Source of the DNA: a virus
Lineage: Duplodnaviria; Caudoviricetes
IMG/VR virus record: IMGVR_UViG_3300010283_000005
Span: 1 to 64,000 of that record
Strand: one strand, 5' to 3'
Length of the DNA stretch: 64,000 bases
The position numbers and the translations under genes were made by a program. Shown in pieces: positions 18,340 through 24,828 of the stretch. The number at the start of each line of letters is the position of its first letter. Position 1 is the stretch's first letter. The notes beneath the pieces were generated by a model. It searched no databases and was not told the origin of the DNA. It saw nothing but the letters and a program-made list of their open reading frames with translations.

Positions 18340-18469
18340 CGGAAGATAGCTCAATAGGGAGAGCATCAGGATTTTAAGTTCATAGTTCCTAGGTTTAGGA
18401 ACTAACAGCAATCGAATTTGAATAAAAATTGGGACCTGAGGGTTATTGGTTCGAGTCCAATTCTTCCGA
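18340..18469 (+). ncRNA. tRNA-Pro(UGG)-like RNA with a 57-nt insert in the anticodon loop
   Basis: acceptor CGGAAGA/TCTTCCG-A (C1-G72, A73), anticodon stem TCAGG/CCTGA, TGG-GA; insert = GGTT hairpin + TAACAGCAA. Confidence 0.8.
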
Positions 18470-18552: not shown

Positions 18553-20073
18553 ATGAGTTTTATGAGTGAACTCAAGAATCAACTGGATGACAAGTACAAT
18601 GTCTCAGTCACTGAGAATGGTGCAATCGGATATCGTACTACAACTCATCCGCTACTGGATCTCAACTTTGCAGTAGCATCGTTGCGTTCAGAATCTGAAC
18701 AAAAAATCACTAAGATGTTCCGCTCAGCTTTTGTTGAGAATCCGGAGCTCGCAATCAAGTGGCTATTCTATGCTCGTGATGTAAGAGGTGGTTTAGGAGA
18801 GCGAAGATTATTCCGAGTTATCTTGGAAGATCTGTGCTTTACATATCCTGAGGTAGCTGATAAGATCCTCAGTCTAATCCCTATCTACGGTAGATATGAT
18901 GACCTCGTTCAGCTTGCTACTGGTGAGTGGAGATATCGTGATAAGGTTGTAGATATCCTCAAGACTCAGCTCGAATCTGATCTTGCTCAGATGGAGATTG
19001 GTCGACCTACTTCTCTGCTAGCTAAGTGGATGCCTTCCGTAAATGCAGGTAGAAATGCCCGTGAAGCAGCATTGATGATCGCTGATTCTATGCGACTCAC
19101 TGAGAATCAGTACCGTAGAAAGCTCAGCAAGCTCCGTAAGTACATCGATCTTGTAGAGAGTCACATGTGTGCAGGAGACTGGTCAGGTATCGAGTACTCC
19201 AAGGTACCTTCTAGGGCTGCTTTGATTTACAAGGATGCATTTATGAAGCATGATTCTGATCGATACTCTGAGTATATCGCTCAGGTCGAGGAGGGATCTG
19301 CTAAGATCAATGCTGGTACCTTGTATCCTCATGATATCGTGGCTCGATATAGTCCCTCTGCTCGAGTATCTCGTGCACTTGATTCTACTCTGGAGGCTAT
19401 GTGGAAAGCACTTCCTGAGGTCGATTTATCAGGTAAGCAGATGCTTGTAGTCAGAGATGGTTCAGGCTCAATGTCTTGGCAGAATGCTGGTAAATCCAAT
19501 GTGAACTGCTTGACTGTAGCTACTGCATTGACCATCTACTTTGCAGAACGTACTACTGGTGAGTTCAAGAATAAGTTCATCACGTTCAGTGCTCGTCCTA
19601 AGCTGATCGATTTGCTTGGATGCGATACTCTCCATGATAAGCTCATTAAGACTTATGCTGAAGATGATTGCTCCAATACTGATCTGTACAAAGTATTTAC
19701 CTTAATCCTTGATACAGCAGTCAGTGCTAATATGGATCAATCAGAGATGCCTGAGAATATCCTGATTTTCAGTGATATGGAGTTCGATGGTCATAAATTT
19801 GACTGGGATACTCGTTTATTTGAAGTCATCTCTGATCAGTATGCTCAGCATGGGTATAAGATTCCTAGGCTGATCTTCTGGAATCTGAATAGTCGCACTG
19901 AGACTATTCCTGTGATCAAGAATGAACTTGGACTAGTCCTCACCAGTGGGTACTCAGTTCAGGCTGGCAAAATGATCATGTCAGGTGAACTTGATCCAAT
20001 GAAAGCACTTGAGGATATCCTCAATGCTGATAGATATCAGCCATTATCTGATGCTCTCAATGAGGAGGTGTGA
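18553..20073 (+). CDS. DUF2828-family TROVE/Ro60-like helical domain + vWA protein
   Basis: TENGA, RDVRGGLGER, LAKWMP, INAGTLYP, DGSGSM (MIDAS), SDMEFD, FWNL motifs. Confidence 0.85.
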   Translation: MSFMSELKNQLDDKYNVSVTENGAIGYRTTTHPLLDLNFAVASLRSESEQKITKMFRSAFVENPELAIKWLFYARDVRGGLGERRLFRVILEDLCFTYPEVADKILSLIPIYGRYDDLVQLATGEWRYRDKVVDILKTQLESDLAQMEIGRPTSLLAKWMPSVNAGRNAREAALMIADSMRLTENQYRRKLSKLRKYIDLVESHMCAGDWSGIEYSKVPSRAALIYKDAFMKHDSDRYSEYIAQVEEGSAKINAGTLYPHDIVARYSPSARVSRALDSTLEAMWKALPEVDLSGKQMLVVRDGSGSMSWQNAGKSNVNCLTVATALTIYFAERTTGEFKNKFITFSARPKLIDLLGCDTLHDKLIKTYAEDDCSNTDLYKVFTLILDTAVSANMDQSEMPENILIFSDMEFDGHKFDWDTRLFEVISDQYAQHGYKIPRLIFWNLNSRTETIPVIKNELGLVLTSGYSVQAGKMIMSGELDPMKALEDILNADRYQPLSDALNEEV

Positions 20074-20075
20074 CT

Positions 20076-20318
20076 ATGATTCTATTCTTAGTAATTATCG
20101 CAATTGCTGACGGTATCATAGTTGCTAAGAGACTGGTGACTATCAAGCCTAAGCGTATGACTTTATGGTCGTTGATCGCTGGTATCATTTATGGCATCAT
20201 CGCACTGATGACCATTGAGTCTGGAGCATCACTGATCGGAGGGTCAGTGATCATGTTTCTTCCAGTAGTACTCTGGTTACTACGAGTGATTCTATTCGGC
20301 ACTCGATTATCTGAGTAA
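20076..20318 (+). CDS. small membrane protein (3 TM)
   Basis: hydrophobic segments; SD present. Confidence 0.6.
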   Translation: MILFLVIIAIADGIIVAKRLVTIKPKRMTLWSLIAGIIYGIIALMTIESGASLIGGSVIMFLPVVLWLLRVILFGTRLSE

Positions 20319-20360
20319 TAGTTCTCTGAGTCACTTGAGACCTTAGGTGACTCAATATAA

Positions 20361-20751
20361 GGGGATGTAACGGTATCGATTGGGTTGTGATGCTACGAAT
20401 TCGTCCGAGTGACTACGTAATAGTCAAACTAAAATAAACGCTAAAGTTGTAAACTTTTTCGGAAGTAGAACTGCTGCTTGTGCAGCCTAAGTTCTTCTGA
20501 CGAATTTCAGATGATACTAAGTGCTACAGCCGATGTCTGATCTTATCAAATAAAGTAGTACGGTTTGGTTGGTTATATACATAGAGGAATAACCTGGTGG
20601 ACTAGCAGAAACCTTTCTGCCCCTGATAATCGAAGTGGTTAGAACTTATTGCCATGCTGAAACATTCGATTGAAAATTTGCAGAAAAGTCAACGACGTAA
20701 AGATTTGTAGAGTAGTGATTCAAGACACGGGTTCGACTCCCGTCATCTCCA
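20361..20751 (+). ncRNA. ssrA: tmRNA
   Basis: GGGGATG/CATCTCC-A acceptor with G3:U70; T-arm ACGGG-TTCGACT-CCCGT; ATAAAC then tag frame 20440-20490 AKVVNFFGSRTAACAA*. Confidence 0.93.
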
Positions 20752-20793
20752 TCACTTTTATTAAGTTATCGGAAATAGTCATTAGTCCTATGC

Positions 20794-20823
20794 AGAGGTA
20801 ATTAGGTTTCAGTGGCGTTTATA
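20794..20823 (+). promoter_or_regulatory. phage promoter copy
   Basis: AGAGGTAAT-N13-CGTTTATA. Confidence 0.7.
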
Positions 20824-20879
20824 TCTATGTCAAGGAAACTTGATTGCGATAGAAATTCACTGAAATTAGGAGGTCACCG

Positions 20880-21074
20880 ATGTTCAATTGGGTCGAAGAA
20901 TTCAAGAAAGCTAATGATGCTTATCAACTTGCATTACAGCAGGAATCGAATGCTGAATTCGATTACATAGAGATTGCAATCAGCAACACTAATGCTGCTA
21001 AGATTCGTCTCGATAATGTAATCAAGAGGGCTAAGTTAGGAGAAATCCCTAATGTACCTCGAGTGATTATCTGA
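20880..21074 (+). CDS. small helical hypothetical protein (YaaL/DUF2508-like)
   Basis: AGGAGG SD; short two-helix pattern with DYIEIAI...NAAK.R. Confidence 0.55.
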   Translation: MFNWVEEFKKANDAYQLALQQESNAEFDYIEIAISNTNAAKIRLDNVIKRAKLGEIPNVPRVII

Positions 21075-21091
21075 TAACTTAGTATTGATAG

Positions 21092-21182
21092 GGTAGTGTG
21101 TCAGAGCGGATGAATGAGACGGTCTTGAAAACCGTTGATGGCTAATAACCATCCGTGGGTTCGAATCCCACCACTACCGCCA
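21092..21182 (+). tRNA. tRNA-Ser(UGA)
   Basis: cloverleaf, ACGGT-CTTGAAA-ACCGT, long variable arm, GCCA end. Confidence 0.93.
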
Positions 21183-21185
21183 TAT

Positions 21186-21271
21186 GGTGAGTTCCCATAA
21201 TCGTTATTGGAGCAGATTGCTAATCTGTCGGTCGAGTAATCGGCTTGAGGGTTCGAGTCCCTCACTCACCG
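21186..21271 (+). tRNA. tRNA-Ser(GCU), CCA not encoded
   Basis: GGTGAGT/ACTCACC; GCAGA-TTGCTAA-TCTGT; long variable arm. Confidence 0.88.
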
Positions 21272-21274
21272 TTT

Positions 21275-21467
21275 GATAATTGAGGGATGTAGGATTAGAA
21301 GCGTCCGTCATCTAAGGAGTGAATTCTGACTATCTGAGCGTTAATACCTCATGTAATTCATACGCTAGTGAGGGTAGCACTGATGTCTAGTCAAGTTGTT
21401 ATAAAGTGCTATCAGATAGTTGACTTGACCATGTGATTCTTAGGCGTAGTAGCACACCTCAGTTATC
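21275..21467 (+). ncRNA. 23S rRNA GTPase-associated-centre (H43/H44) mimic RNA with a 123-nt insertion
   Basis: GGATGTAGGATTAGAAGCGTCCGTCATCTAAGGAGT...GCGTAGTAGCACA closed by an 11-bp stem GATAATTGAGG/CCTCAGTTATC. Confidence 0.8.
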
Positions 21468-21473
21468 TTACTT

Positions 21474-21552
21474 CGGGATGTAGTTCAGTTTGGCTAGAAT
21501 GCGTGATTTGGGATCACGAGGTTCGCAGGTTCAAGTCCTGTCATCCCGACCA
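21474..21552 (+). tRNA. tRNA-Pro(UGG)
   Basis: CGGGATG/CATCCCG-ACCA; CGTGA-TTTGGGA-TCACG. Confidence 0.93.
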
Positions 21553-21567
21553 GAAATCAATCGTCAA

Positions 21568-21597
21568 GGAGTTAATTAAAGTTCCTCGACGTTTATA
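21568..21597 (+). promoter_or_regulatory. phage promoter copy
   Basis: GGAGTTAAT-N13-CGTTTATA. Confidence 0.75.
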
Positions 21598-21626
21598 CTT
21601 CTGTAAGGTTCGAAAGCCTTGCAATT

Positions 21627-21695
21627 TAGGTGCTAACAGCAATTAACAAATAACTTTGAATTCTGATAAACTTCAATCCTTATTTAATGCACCTA
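21627..21695 (+). ncRNA. minimal ACAGCAA RNA presenting an Ile(GAU) anticodon loop
   Basis: TAGGTGC/GCACCTA stem, TAACAGCAA, TTGAATT-CTGATAA-ACTTCAA. Confidence 0.7.
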
Positions 21696-21702
21696 GTAAT
21701 TT

Positions 21703-21788
21703 GAATCAAATAGCTCAATTTGGTAGAGTGCTCGATTCTCCCTTATCCCCGAGTCGAGAGGTAGTAGGTTCGAATCCTACTTGATTCG
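21703..21788 (+). ncRNA. tRNA-like RNA with extended anticodon stem and a C/U-rich 12-nt loop
   Basis: GAATCAA/TTGATTC acceptor, D-arm, GTAGG-TTCGAAT-CCTAC T-arm; CTCGATTC-TCCCTTATCCCC-GAGTCGAG. Confidence 0.7.
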
Positions 21789-21790
21789 CT

Positions 21791-22147
21791 AGGGTCTATG
21801 CTATGTCCCGTGCATACGATCCGTAAATACGGGGACGACATGGCTCATGAGGGTAGTGTAACCCTCATCGAAGCTGAGTTGATCGCTCCCGTTTGAGTGG
21901 GACTCAGTCACTCTTTAGCTCTGCTATGAGAGGGTTCTTGGACGAATAACTAAGAAATACACAGCAGTCGATGAGAACTGAGTGGTGCAGGAACTCGTAG
22001 CTAGGAGATAAGTACAAGGTGTATGGGCAATGATGGTCGCGAGTAGGCGATTAGGCATCAAAAGTCCTAATGACGTTCACTCCGAAATTAAAGAATCACC
22101 ATGTGGAGACTGGTAGGAGTCTCGAGTAATCCTATCAGTTATCCACT
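21791..22147 (+). ncRNA. unassigned large structured RNA (about 355 nt)
   Basis: no ORF; several stems (ATGAGGGT/ACCCTCAT, CTGAGT/ACTCAG, CTGGTAGGA/TCCTATCAG); bounded by tRNA(-like) genes. Confidence 0.55.
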
Positions 22148-22153
22148 AAATAT

Positions 22154-22241
22154 GCTGGTATGGTGGAATTAGGCAGACACTGGGGTCTTAAAAACCCTTG
22201 ATGGTAACATCGTACGAGTTCGAGTCTCGTTACCAGCACCA
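22154..22241 (+). tRNA. tRNA-Leu(UAA)
   Basis: GCTGGTA/TACCAGC-ACCA; GGGGT-CTTAAAA-ACCCT; long variable arm. Confidence 0.92.
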
Positions 22242-22246
22242 TATAA

Positions 22247-22319
22247 TGGCTTGTAGCTCAGCGGTAGTAGCGCCTGACTGTTAATCAGGATGTCGTGGGT
22301 TCGAATCCCACCTAGCCAG
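22247..22319 (+). tRNA. tRNA-Asn(GUU), CCA not encoded
   Basis: CCTGA-CTGTTAA-TCAGG; G73; one acceptor mismatch. Confidence 0.88.
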
Positions 22320-22323
22320 CTTA

Positions 22324-22601
22324 TCACTTAATATATCGTGACCGAGGTTCTAGTGCAGTAAAATTCTGCAGTACTCATTGAGTATAACGCTCCTATCACG
22401 ATATAGCTTGGATTGAGACTGCAGAAACTCATTTCAATCCTATAAAGTGACGCAATTCGATCAGCGTAATCGATCGGCAGGGAATGCTACCTGACAGTAA
22501 GTGCAGACCTCGGTAAGTCGGAGTCCAAGTGCACATGGATAGCTAGAGAAGGTACCCTCTAGTGAGGTGAGACTTAGTCCAGTACTAGAAACTTTACTGC
22601 A
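22324..22601 (+). ncRNA. unassigned multiply pseudoknotted RNA (about 280 nt)
   Basis: TATATCGTGA/TCACGATATA stem whose loop pairs with four downstream segments. Confidence 0.6.
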
Positions 22602-22619
22602 ATCGAAAGGAGTTATTCG

Positions 22620-23084
22620 ATGAGAATCTATACTTCGTACTTCTATCAAATTAGATTCTTCACTCCGAATGTGATACCACTTAGCACTGCTGTGTGGGAT
22701 CCGAAATGGTATCATAACCATCAGGATCAAGGTCACATTTATAAGGATAAGAGAGGAGTGCTCAATGGCATAAGATACACACCATTAGCACCAGGTCAGG
22801 AGTGCTCAGGTGATTGTCATGGTAGAGATAACTGCCAGTTCAATCCTGATAACTGTGTATTCCTTAAGCATTATCTTGATCAGCTTAATAAGATGGATTT
22901 TCAGCAGATGCTCAGAGATCTCAAATCTCTAGCTGATAGCTCCGCTAAGGTATTCAATCTGAAAGGTGATGTGAGCATCTGTCTCATTGTTCATGAAGCT
23001 CCAAGTAATCCTTGCAGTGAAAGAGTCGTGATTCAGCAGTGGTTCAAGGATAATAATTTTCCTATCAATGAATGGTCACGATAA
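22620..23084 (+). CDS. DUF488-like protein
   Basis: MRIYTSYF N-terminus; PKWY; LIVHE..CSER..I..WF. Confidence 0.6.
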   Translation: MRIYTSYFYQIRFFTPNVIPLSTAVWDPKWYHNHQDQGHIYKDKRGVLNGIRYTPLAPGQECSGDCHGRDNCQFNPDNCVFLKHYLDQLNKMDFQQMLRDLKSLADSSAKVFNLKGDVSICLIVHEAPSNPCSERVVIQQWFKDNNFPINEWSR

Positions 23085-23113
23085 TCGAAATCTGATAGTA
23101 GGAGTCATAATAG

Positions 23114-23199
23114 GCTCGTGTGGTGAAATTAGGCAGACACGCTAGATTTAGGATCTAGTTCCGTAAGGAGTACGGGTTCGAGTCCCGTCACGAGTACCA
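23114..23199 (+). tRNA. tRNA-Leu(UAG)
   Basis: GCTCGTG/CACGAGT-ACCA; CTAGA-TTTAGGA-TCTAG. Confidence 0.92.
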
Positions 23200-23317
23200 T
23201 CTTCCATAAGTCACTCCTATCATTAGTATACATAAACGATTCTCACTCAAGAATCGTGGTCGCAATGAGGTAACTCCTCAAAGTGATCAAATACTAATAA
23301 TAGGAGTGATTTGTTGT

Positions 23318-23695
23318 ATGGAAGAAAGAAGAACTGAATCGTTTATGGGTAAGAGTATTCCTGATATTGACCTTAATGGTATGATGGAGGAATCAATTCA
23401 ATGTGTCGAACCTCAGGCAATTGCTGATAAGATCAAGAATATGTCAGCTGATGAAAGAGATAACTTGACTATTGATAAGATTCACTATGATACTTGGGGC
23501 AATATCTCAGCAGTAATGCTGACTTCAGGTGATGTGATCTCAACTGAGACTGCAATAGCCTTAGCTGATCAAAATGCTATCAAGGGCTACTGTGCAGGAT
23601 CTAATAGAGAGCATCAGCGTACTCTGAGGAGCAATCCTGGTGATGAAGAACGTCATCTCCATGATCATCAAATCTTAGAAGATTTGAATAGATGA
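23318..23695 (+). CDS. DUF3892-like protein
   Basis: G.ISAVML..G..IS..TAI.LA ... LRSNPG motif. Confidence 0.55.
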   Translation: MEERRTESFMGKSIPDIDLNGMMEESIQCVEPQAIADKIKNMSADERDNLTIDKIHYDTWGNISAVMLTSGDVISTETAIALADQNAIKGYCAGSNREHQRTLRSNPGDEERHLHDHQILEDLNR

Positions 23696-23717
23696 GCTTA
23701 GCTCATCTAGTACATAA

Positions 23718-23793
23718 GGACCGTTAGTTCAGTCGGTAGAACATCCAGCTCATAACTGGGCAGTCACGGGTTCGAGTCCCCTACGGTCCACCA
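23718..23793 (+). tRNA. tRNA with CAU anticodon, likely Ile2 (lysidine type)
   Basis: GGACCGT/ACGGTCC-ACCA; CTCATAA loop; GGACC acceptor resembles Firmicute tRNA-Ile2. Confidence 0.85.
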
Positions 23794-23796
23794 TAT

Positions 23797-23871
23797 GCAG
23801 GTATAGTACATCGGTTAGTGCGCTTGACTTCCAATCAAGATAGACGGGTTCGACTCCCGCTACCTGCTCCA
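23797..23871 (+). tRNA. tRNA-Gly(UCC)
   Basis: GCAGGTA/TACCTGC-TCCA; CTTGA-CTTCCAA-TCAAG. Confidence 0.92.
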
Positions 23872-23874
23872 TAT

Positions 23875-23951
23875 GCGTCATTAGCTCAGTTGGATAGAGC
23901 AAATGCCTTCTAAGCATTAGGTCACTGGTTCAAATCCTGTATGGCGCACCA
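23875..23951 (+). tRNA. tRNA-Arg(UCU)
   Basis: GCGTCAT/ATGGCGC-ACCA; AATGC-CTTCTAA-GCATT. Confidence 0.92.
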
Positions 23952-23982
23952 TTCTAAATACTTACGTAAAGGAGAAATTACA

Positions 23983-24180
23983 TTGGAAAATCACATTGTT
24001 GAGTTGAAGTCACTTCTGAAGGATATGGATATCCCTAGCTTCCGTAAGGATGATATCGATAAGGTCAACCTTAAGTGGTTAGCTAAGAACCTTGCTAAGC
24101 GTAACATGAATCATCCGAATTACGTTAGAGCGATGCAGCTAGTACATACTATCCTTGAGCAGAAGTCCTACTCACATTGA
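23983..24180 (+). CDS. hypothetical protein
   Basis: AAAGGAG SD + TTG at 23983 (the track start lies inside tRNA-Arg). Confidence 0.55.
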   Translation: MENHIVELKSLLKDMDIPSFRKDDIDKVNLKWLAKNLAKRNMNHPNYVRAMQLVHTILEQKSYSH

Positions 24181-24195
24181 TAGGAGGTAGAATAA

Positions 24196-24828
24196 TTGCC
24201 AGTAATTTATAAGATTACTAATAAGATTAATGGCAAGGTCTATATAGGACGTACTCGTGGTACTGCGAAAGATAGATTCGAGAGGCATTGGAGACAACGT
24301 TATGAAGATAAGCCATTTTACCATGATCTGCGAGAGTTAGGTAAAGATGGATTCCGACTAGAAGTCCTGCAAGAGGTATCGGATGATGACTGGACTACTG
24401 AATATAGCATAATTCAGCAGTATGTTCATGATTTAGGAATTGACCAAGTATATAATGTAGAGATAGCTGGTCAAGCTTGCAATAGTCATAAGGCTATTAT
24501 CGAGAAGTATGGATCTCTCGAAGCAGTTGTACATAACGATGCTTGCTGGGATAAATCTAGAAAATCGCAGATCGACAGATACGGTAAGCTGGCAATTCAC
24601 TGGAAATCTTCATACGAGCCTAAAAGTTATCATTTTCAGTATGATGATCAGGAATTCGTAGGATTTACTGATCTATGGAAGTATCTGAGAGAGCATGGCT
24701 ATCCTAAAATAGGCAAGACTACCGTCAAGAGGATAGCTCATAATCCAGATAAAATATTCAGATCTTACCCTGAGCTAAGTGGCAAGATAATAATCCTAGA
24801 AGGATTAGGAAGGAGATCAAATGGATAG
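24196..24828 (+). CDS. free-standing GIY-YIG homing endonuclease (Seg-like)
   Basis: VIYKITNKINGKVYIGRT...RFERH; YN motif. Confidence 0.85.
   Translation: MPVIYKITNKINGKVYIGRTRGTAKDRFERHWRQRYEDKPFYHDLRELGKDGFRLEVLQEVSDDDWTTEYSIIQQYVHDLGIDQVYNVEIAGQACNSHKAIIEKYGSLEAVVHNDACWDKSRKSQIDRYGKLAIHWKSSYEPKSYHFQYDDQEFVGFTDLWKYLREHGYPKIGKTTVKRIAHNPDKIFRSYPELSGKIIILEGLGRRSNG

Follow-up and report, generated by a model that had tools for sequence, protein, structure and literature searches.

A conserved structured RNA in the tRNA gene array of a clade of animal-gut phages, probably of a family not yet described

The spacer between a tRNA-Asn gene and a DUF488-like open reading frame in the tRNA array of an uncultured gut phage encodes a conserved, non-coding, structured RNA of about 260 to 300 nt on the + strand, several of whose helices covary among homologs. 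A sequence-only reading of this DNA had proposed a structured RNA inside the tRNA array at this place, and the relatives that we collected bear this out. The structural part of this conclusion is well supported. Taken as a whole, the explanation that we prefer, and in which we have reasonable confidence, is that of a real structured RNA belonging to a hitherto undescribed family, which in our preferred reading would act as a stand-alone stable RNA. As to the mode of action, action in trans is a guess that we would put at about even, and action in cis as a leader, taken overall, is a possibility that we lean against.

The window, that is the whole stretch of 64,000 nucleotides that was analysed, comprises the first 64 kb of an IMG/VR virus record that is 142,407 bp long and has direct terminal repeats. 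PHROG matches to a portal, a prohead protease, a major head protein and a tail sheath mark the phage as myovirus-type. Between 18.3 and 24 kb the + strand carries an array of RNA genes, made up of a tmRNA and eleven or twelve tRNA genes as called by ARAGORN and Rfam, and the element lies within this array (Table 1). ARAGORN and the Rfam tRNA model (RF00005) with the other Rfam models found no tRNA, tRNA-like gene or tmRNA inside the element, with 11-12 such genes around it, and the list of open reading frames contains none of at least 30 aa on the + strand inside 22321-22619. The alignment of homologs contains indels of 1, 2, 4 and 12 nt, which together with the lack of a + strand reading frame rules out that the spacer is coding. 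The same tRNA-Asn(GTT) stands 5' of the element in the L078, L080, L085 and L09x loci. The proposal that the stretch stops just before a Shine-Dalgarno sequence (SD) was confirmed.

Table 1. Positions of the element, its helices and inverted repeats, and neighbouring genes in the window. Paired strands are separated by a slash; cells are alignment cells.
Feature	Position	Strand	Sequence	Remark
DUF2828+DUF7788 protein, Ro60-related	18535-20073			matches phrog_850 'RNA-binding protein'; 2.2 kb upstream of element
tmRNA	20361-20754	+	tag peptide AKVVNFFGSRTAACAA	88.5 bits
tRNA-Asn(GTT)	22247-22319	+		no encoded CCA; ARAGORN; Rfam tRNA 63.7 bits
Complete non-coding spacer (element, variable 3' tail, SD)	22321-22619	+		299 nt; full-length homology in 12 distinct copies
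Conserved structured core	22324-22583	+		~260 nt; alignment A4, RNAalifold, pair counts
P0	22324-29 / 22445-50	+	UCACUU / AAGUGA	closes three-way junction with P1, P2
P1	22332-41 / 22396-405	+	UAUAUCGUGA / UCACGAUAUA	10 bp; 99.1% of cells paired
PK-a	22342-49 / 22506-13	+	CCGAGGUU / GACCUCGG	the ACCGAGGT/ACCTCGGT pairing; crosses P0, P1; chosen by RNAalifold
P1a hairpin	22354-58 / 22366-70	+	UGCAG / CUGCA, loop UAAAAUU	invariant, hence untestable
P1b hairpin	22371-76 / 22380-85	+	GUACUC / GAGUAU	compensatory changes in two pairs
P2 hairpin	22410-18 / 22432-40	+	GGAUUGAGA / UUUCAAUCC	apical CUGCAGA(A)
P3 short hairpin	22458-62 / 22472-76	+	CGAUC / GAUCG	same place in all lineages
P4	22478-81 / 22490-93	+	CAGG / CCUG, loop GAAUGCUA	loop invariant; 100% of cells paired
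X	22514-19 / 22571-76	+	UAAGUC / GACUUA	encloses H1, H2; 98.7% of cells paired
H1 hairpin	22524-27 / 22536-39	+	UCCA / UGGA	UCCCU/AGGGA in other lineages
H2 hairpin	22543-48 / 22557-62	+	CUAGAG / CUCUAG	variable arm
Y		+	AUGGAG / CUCCAU	closes 3' domain, except in the window's own lineage
Repeat	22332-41 / 22396-405		TATATCGTGA / TCACGATATA	
Repeat	22341-48 / 22507-14		ACCGAGGT / ACCTCGGT	
Repeat	22348-54 / 22584-90		TTCTAGT / ACTAGAA	
Repeat	22354-62 / 22593-601		TGCAGTAAA / TTTACTGCA	
Repeat	22364-72 / 22418-26		TTCTGCAGT / ACTGCAGAA	
Variable 3' tail	22584-22606	+	contains ACTAGAA and TTTACTGCA	poorly conserved; lengths differ by up to 50 nt
SD and DUF488-like ORF	22608-23084	+	SD AGGAG 22608-12	ORF 22620-23084, ATG 22620, 154 aa; ORF list

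Several other features of the array were recorded alongside the element. In the related locus L078 the tmRNA differs by one change in the tag (GRRTAACAA). Homologs of the DUF2828+DUF7788 protein likewise lie within tRNA arrays in about 30 IMG/VR phages. At 18340-18469 the Rfam tRNA model aligns end to end (53 bits) over 130 nt without an ARAGORN call, and this locus looks like a tRNA body carrying an insertion of about 55 nt. A further tRNA-shaped gene at 21703-21789 (Rfam tRNA, 44 bits) is listed by ARAGORN as 'tRNA-???' (cc), with its anticodon unnamed. It is followed at 21790-22153 by another non-coding gap, about 360 nt long, where L078 has an open reading frame and a tRNA-Tyr. Searches by blastn, nhmmer and covariance model gave no match between this gap and the element, and the gap is less conserved across samples (about 17 differences in 394 nt). 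Genes of homing-endonuclease type also occur in these arrays, namely a GIY-YIG gene at 24196-24828 of the window and a DUF559/MTES_1575 and a GIY-YIG gene in L092 (533-1153 and 2005-2610). Since such insertions occupy differing array sites among relatives, they account for part of the variation in gene order.

The cmscan that the sequence-only reading had put forward as a check returned no family for the element. With Rfam 15, neither the complete window at gathering thresholds nor the interval 20000-24500 at E up to 10 gave a match overlapping 22321-22619 on either strand. The families without a match there include GOLLD and ROOL, to which no likeness of the element was found, as well as RNase P, 6S, Y RNA/YrlA, the group I intron, T-box, riboswitches and small ribozymes. 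Some resemblances were picked out by eye, to the CR-I/P4 region of RNase P, the B12 box of cobalamin riboswitches, the sarcin-ricin loop and the group I R/S elements (GAUAUAGUCC in L085), and all were rejected because order and context do not fit and no model matches.

Searches by sequence gave the same picture. Using blastn against 50,697 phage records we obtained matches confined to the flanking tRNAs, exact-word scans of IMG/VR gave chance matches or none, and a scan of JGI metagenomes gave two matches, both by chance. Neither blastn nor nhmmer found the element at the loci of distant DUF488-like homologs (34-53% identity) or of DUF2828 homologs (30-48% identity), and covariance model R1, run over distant loci from 61 sources (665 kb), did not find it either. 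Short matches in L051, L052 and L056 were discarded as chance, their positions falling within a dUTPase gene. The 142-kb genome itself holds no paralog or antisense target of the element. There appears to be no second copy in IMG/VR, so a comparative screen of that collection would be unlikely to have caught the element; a large one, with 8,495 structured-RNA candidates, has been described (PMC10690425).

Copies were reached instead through the downstream protein. The proteins closest to it, at 62-92% identity, are encoded on ENA and Logan contigs that share its gene order and carry the element, and further copies came from members of two 90% protein clusters. This yielded 12 distinct full-length and three partial copies of the element in six lineages, which are the window group, L080, L083, L085, the L092-L100 group and L086. 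Every copy stems from an animal-gut or wastewater assembly, and sequencing runs from pig, bovine and chicken gut, from faeces and from wastewater contain near-identical DNA. The element is missing from three close relatives, L082, L084 and L087, in which 20-36 nt separate the same ORF from the tRNA directly before it. As far as these copies go, the element is conserved in one clade of myovirus-type animal-gut phages of about 140 kb, a narrow distribution.

The copies allowed the fold to be examined by comparison. We derived it from folds of each lineage and from RNAalifold runs with 5 and with 14 sequences, and took pair statistics from the comparable columns of alignment A4, 561 cells in all. 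Paired cells made up 98.2% of these. Eight pairs had changed on both sides, a number equalled by 1 of 500 shuffles and drawn from six lineages alone, so that covariation events are few and partly reflect one split between the window lineage and the rest. The covariation score was 0.124 against 0.071, and none of the 500 shuffles reached it. In controls with slid strands, 33-44% of cells were paired and zero or one pair covaried. At least 11 helices are kept among the homologs, and the two-sided changes lie in P1b, P4, X and Y. Covariation among homologs, the second check proposed from the sequence, is thus present. Many of the changes produce G.U pairs, which on the opposite strand would read as A.C, and the functional strand is therefore the + strand.

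These data describe a fold of two domains, which we regard as well supported. The 5' domain is a three-way junction of P0, P1 and P2 with P1a and P1b inside P1; P3 and P4 follow; and the 3' domain consists of X around H1 and H2. P1 is the minimum free energy (MFE) choice in every lineage and varies by A-U to G.U at two positions, with one terminal mismatch in L105. P0 lacks covariation, has UCAC and GUGA in all lineages at a variable spacing from P1, and appears in the MFE structures of the window, L105, L080 and L083. The pair types found in P1b are A-U to G-C, and C-G, G-C, U-A and G.U, with G.U becoming A-U in L100. In P4, three of the four pairs show compensatory changes, one position occurring with four pair types, and X has two compensatory pairs, A-U to G-C and C-G to U-A.

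The remaining hairpins vary more freely. P2 and H2 could not be scored on a sequence alignment, as the hairpin is kept and the stem sequences are unrelated between lineages. The P2 stem is entirely different in L080 (UCAAUUUG/CAAGUUGA) and reads GGCUG..CAG(A)CUAGCC in L083, L085, L09x and L086, with the apical CUGCAGA invariant throughout. The place of H2 holds a hairpin of 6 to about 18 bp in every lineage, with a U.G to G.U swap in L100. P3 is represented in other lineages by (G)AUCC/GGAU in a shifted register, and a natural variant, 22471 C>U, lengthens it. Helix Y covaries (ACGGAG/CUCCGU in L085 and L086), and the window lineage lacks both of its strands. X, H1, the covariation of P4 and, in the other lineages, Y are all backed by relatives and had escaped the sequence-only reading.

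That reading had called the RNA multiply pseudoknotted, a description that finds no support in this form. One of the four long-range pairings persists in relatives, leaving one plausible pseudoknot together with loop complementarities that are untestable. The survivor is PK-a, in which 100% of cells are paired and the sole changes are from C to U opposite G, at two positions. P1, P1a and PK-a are all without two-sided covariation, P1 and PK-a varying on one side through G.U pairs. The 3' segment of PK-a, 22506-13, has two rival partners, each with 96.2% of cells paired, namely a local hairpin that clashes with the covarying X, and UGAGGU at 22563-68. P1 in turn has an alternative, P1', which joins 22396-406 to 22440-50, so that the middle strand UCACGAUAUAG pairs with CUAUAAAGUGA instead of UAUAUCGUGA, and which is as compatible with the alignment as P1 itself. 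PK-a crosses P1 and makes a pseudoknot if P1 forms; under P1' it would be nested and no pseudoknot would arise. As judged from the alignment, it is plausible that PK-a is the one long-range helix tying the interior of P1 to the 3' domain in a pseudoknot.

As for the other three, TTCTGCAGT/ACTGCAGAA is 97% paired, but its two sides are invariant and so offer no test; P1a, UGCAGA at 22502-07 and the closing pair of P1b, which goes from G.U to A-U in L100, are its rivals. L083 and L086 lack the TTTACTGCA site of TGCAGTAAA/TTTACTGCA, and in L085 this site is degenerate. TTCTAGT/ACTAGAA, with 27% of cells paired, is not conserved.

The repeats from which the proposal had started were all found where it had placed them, and GGATTGA/TCAATCC, CGATC/GATCG and CTAGAG/CTCTAG are likewise present. 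The argument that they are unlikely by chance held against 2000 dinucleotide shuffles, with four perfect repeats of at least 8 bp against a shuffle mean of 0.57 (P 0.0025) and three of at least 9 bp against 0.13 (P 0.001). It is weakened by the phage's own genome, in which at least four such repeats occur in 3.5% of 299-nt windows and at least 36 repeat bp in 1.6%, and by the MFE z-score, which relative to shuffles was -0.98 on the + strand and -1.9 on the - strand. Part of the excess is accounted for by the palindrome CTGCAG/TGCA (UGCA/CUGCAG in RNA), present in four copies. Since the genome-window frequency is appreciable and the z-score weak, the number of repeats is by itself insufficient to establish an RNA.

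The pattern of conservation provides a separate line of evidence. Between the window and the other lineages, the element as a whole is 67-73% identical and the DNA of the neighbouring ORF 70-74%. Within the element, identity rises to 92-97% in a 71-nt 5' block that runs from UCGUGACC to CACGAUAUAG, and the differences in this block all fall in the P1b hairpin. A block so conserved beside an ORF at 70-74% is, judged from these identities, a mark of strong purifying selection. Conservation is mosaic, the best-kept portion being the one farthest from the ORF and the most variable being the junction with the ORF, where the distance from element to start codon ranges from about 23 to 85 nt and the tail sequence varies across lineages. 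Metatranscriptome and metagenome contigs of other samples show 2-3 differences per 299 nt of element. Over their whole length, two contigs with tRNAs, element and part or all of the ORF differ more: X15 at 22 positions in 704 nt and X16 at 44 in about 1030 nt, with the majority of the listed differences falling in the ORF.

The product of that ORF is supported as DUF488-like by its predicted fold. The 154-aa protein itself gave no match to Pfam or PHROGs, and 3 of 30 homologs matched Pfam DUF488 weakly (best E 0.018). An AF2 model (pLDDT 92.3) matched ESM-Atlas clusters of DUF488-N3a/DUF488 with TM 0.67-0.71, which upholds the label given from the sequence, and a profile search and Foldseek found no match in the PDB. 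DUF488-like ORFs recur in or at the edge of the tRNA arrays of many otherwise unrelated large phages (loci L002-L035), which suggests a tRNA-related role for the protein. In one distant phage (L020:2743-3000) the slot between tRNA-Asn and the DUF488-like ORF is 258 nt long and contains two T-arm-like motifs, GGTTCAAGTCC and GGTTCGACTCC, that ARAGORN did not call and that may be decayed or unusual tRNA-like genes. Three loci from phages with the ORF contain tRNAs with a CTA anticodon, amber-reading and labelled 'tRNA-Pyl' by ARAGORN (L024:5271-5426, L026:4256-4330 and L035:910-999), a hint of TAG recoding there.

How the element might act can be framed as follows. No promoter-like or terminator-like site was seen in or beside it, so the simplest arrangement is that it would be made as part of the tRNA-array transcript. 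Its 5' end would then be set by 3' processing of the CCA-less tRNA-Asn. Once freed, the element would be a stand-alone stable RNA, predicted to bind a protein or other partner through the invariant 5' domain and the four UGCAG motifs, a parallel to the stable orphan RNAs encoded in the tRNA cluster of T4. Speaking for such a stand-alone RNA are the three close relatives that keep the ORF without the element, the many other phages in which the ORF directly follows tRNAs, and the poor conservation of the part nearest the ORF. Contigs from RNA libraries (bovine and other gut) span tRNA, element and ORF; being contigs, with DNA carry-over possible, they cannot be read for ends, levels or transcription.

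The chief alternative, which we consider possible but rather doubtful, is that the element is a cis-acting 5' leader of the DUF488-like gene. Excision of tRNA-Asn and of the next tRNA, a tRNA-Leu (23114), would leave a monocistronic mRNA of about 795 nt, on which the element could be a riboswitch-like switch of ribosome access or a 5' structure shielding a 5'-monophosphate mRNA from decay. In all six lineages the element does immediately precede the ORF, in the same orientation and with no terminator-like site separating the two. Every copy was retrieved through the ORF, however, which biases the adjacency, so that its constancy counts neither for nor against a role in cis, and L082, L084 and L087 have the same ORF and no element. 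Three segments with two exclusive pairings, UAUAUCGUGA or CUAUAAAGUGA with UCACGAUAUAG, are typical of switches, and such alternatives would account for the invariance of even the stems. The structure also begins 4 nt from the predicted processed 5' end. Possible partners for the SD region exist, in that CCUCC in the 3' strand of Y is present in five of six lineages and pairs with the SD in folds of L080, L094 and L100, and in four lineages the invariant UGCAGUA could pair with its complement UACUGCA, a motif of the tail lying 6-8 nt before the SD. In partition-function folding, however, the predicted SD partner is inconsistent between lineages, and the window's own lineage lacks both Y and CCUCC. 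Start distance and tail vary, no conserved expression platform (terminator or SD-sequestering helix) is seen, and no known riboswitch model in Rfam matches at E up to 10.

A bolder reading, which we regard as unlikely, is that the element represents a novel class of functional RNA that performs a demanding task, for example as a ribozyme or in sensing a ligand or a tRNA. PK-a would then clamp an active or binding site formed by the invariant 5' domain, and the element would serve the phages to control or process the RNA output of the array. In our judgement improbable, too, is a ribozyme or processing element, for instance a self-cleaving RNA that parts the tRNA precursor from the downstream mRNA. 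The large multi-helix core, the almost invariant block of more than 70 nt, the likely long-range tertiary helix and the position at a processing boundary would suit such a role. Among large structured bacterial RNAs, such complexity is often linked to catalysis or comparably demanding tasks. No Rfam ribozyme family matched even at E up to 10, a recognisable catalytic core motif was not seen, and the contigs, which cannot show ends, give no sign of a cut.

The absence of any dedicated function, that is a transcribed spacer with chance hairpins, a recombination site, homing-endonuclease target or other element acting as DNA, or the remnant of a tRNA or small ORF, fits the repeat count and z-score given above and the presence or absence of the element among relatives whose arrays are populated by homing-endonuclease genes, but it is largely refuted and very improbable in view of the 5' block that far exceeds the ORF in identity, compensatory and G.U-only changes that are strand-specific and fit RNA rather than DNA, the lack of a tRNA model match, and indels that break every frame.

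Judged by the model and homology searches, we regard the element as a new family of an already known kind, the orphan structured RNAs embedded in phage tRNA arrays, and as set apart from the curated Rfam families. Few orphan structured RNAs both exceed 200 nt and have a well-conserved core, and earlier examples opened the way to ribozymes, riboswitches and RNA assemblies that were new. The element adds an alignment-backed case to the old puzzle of non-tRNA stable RNAs among phage tRNA genes, such as T4 RNAC, RNAD and GOLLD. Its reach is limited to one clade of uncultured gut phages. Its assets are a testable fold, the existence of phages that are otherwise syntenic but naturally have or lack it, and a 5' domain of unusual invariance, which should ease pull-downs, probing and structure work.

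Four known systems invite comparison. With riboswitch and T-box leaders the element shares a structured 5' region before an ORF, alternative pairings, and covarying stems around conserved junctions and loops; it differs in the lack of a model match, of a conserved terminator or SD-sequestering platform, and of a constant association, as relatives have the gene without the element. A likeness to Y RNAs (YrlA) and their partner Ro60/Rsr is suggested by the gene for a Ro60-related protein in the same cluster. Bacterial Y RNAs are modular and partly tRNA-like. YrlA (RF02553) does not match in 22321-22619, the element is about twice the size of a Y RNA, and its conserved model, unlike Y RNAs, has no Ro-binding terminal stem formed by the 5' and 3' ends.

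GOLLD and ROOL are about 500-800 nt long. Like the element they are large structured RNAs, often borne by phages or prophages and often beside tRNA genes, with many helices and pseudoknots. They are 2-3 times longer, their Rfam models do not match the element, and the oligomer cages that they form are a property on which nothing here bears; the cryo-EM structures of these large ornate RNAs have been reported (PMC12286853).

The closest parallel in genomic logic is given by RNAC and RNAD (species 1 and 2) of phage T4, which are non-tRNA stable RNAs encoded among phage tRNA genes, as here. They belong to the T4 tRNA cluster, are processed from the same precursor transcripts as the tRNAs, and are about 120-140 nt long. 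Their functions are described as still unknown (PMC9697503). RNAC and RNAD are about half the size of the element, which in addition directly precedes an ORF.
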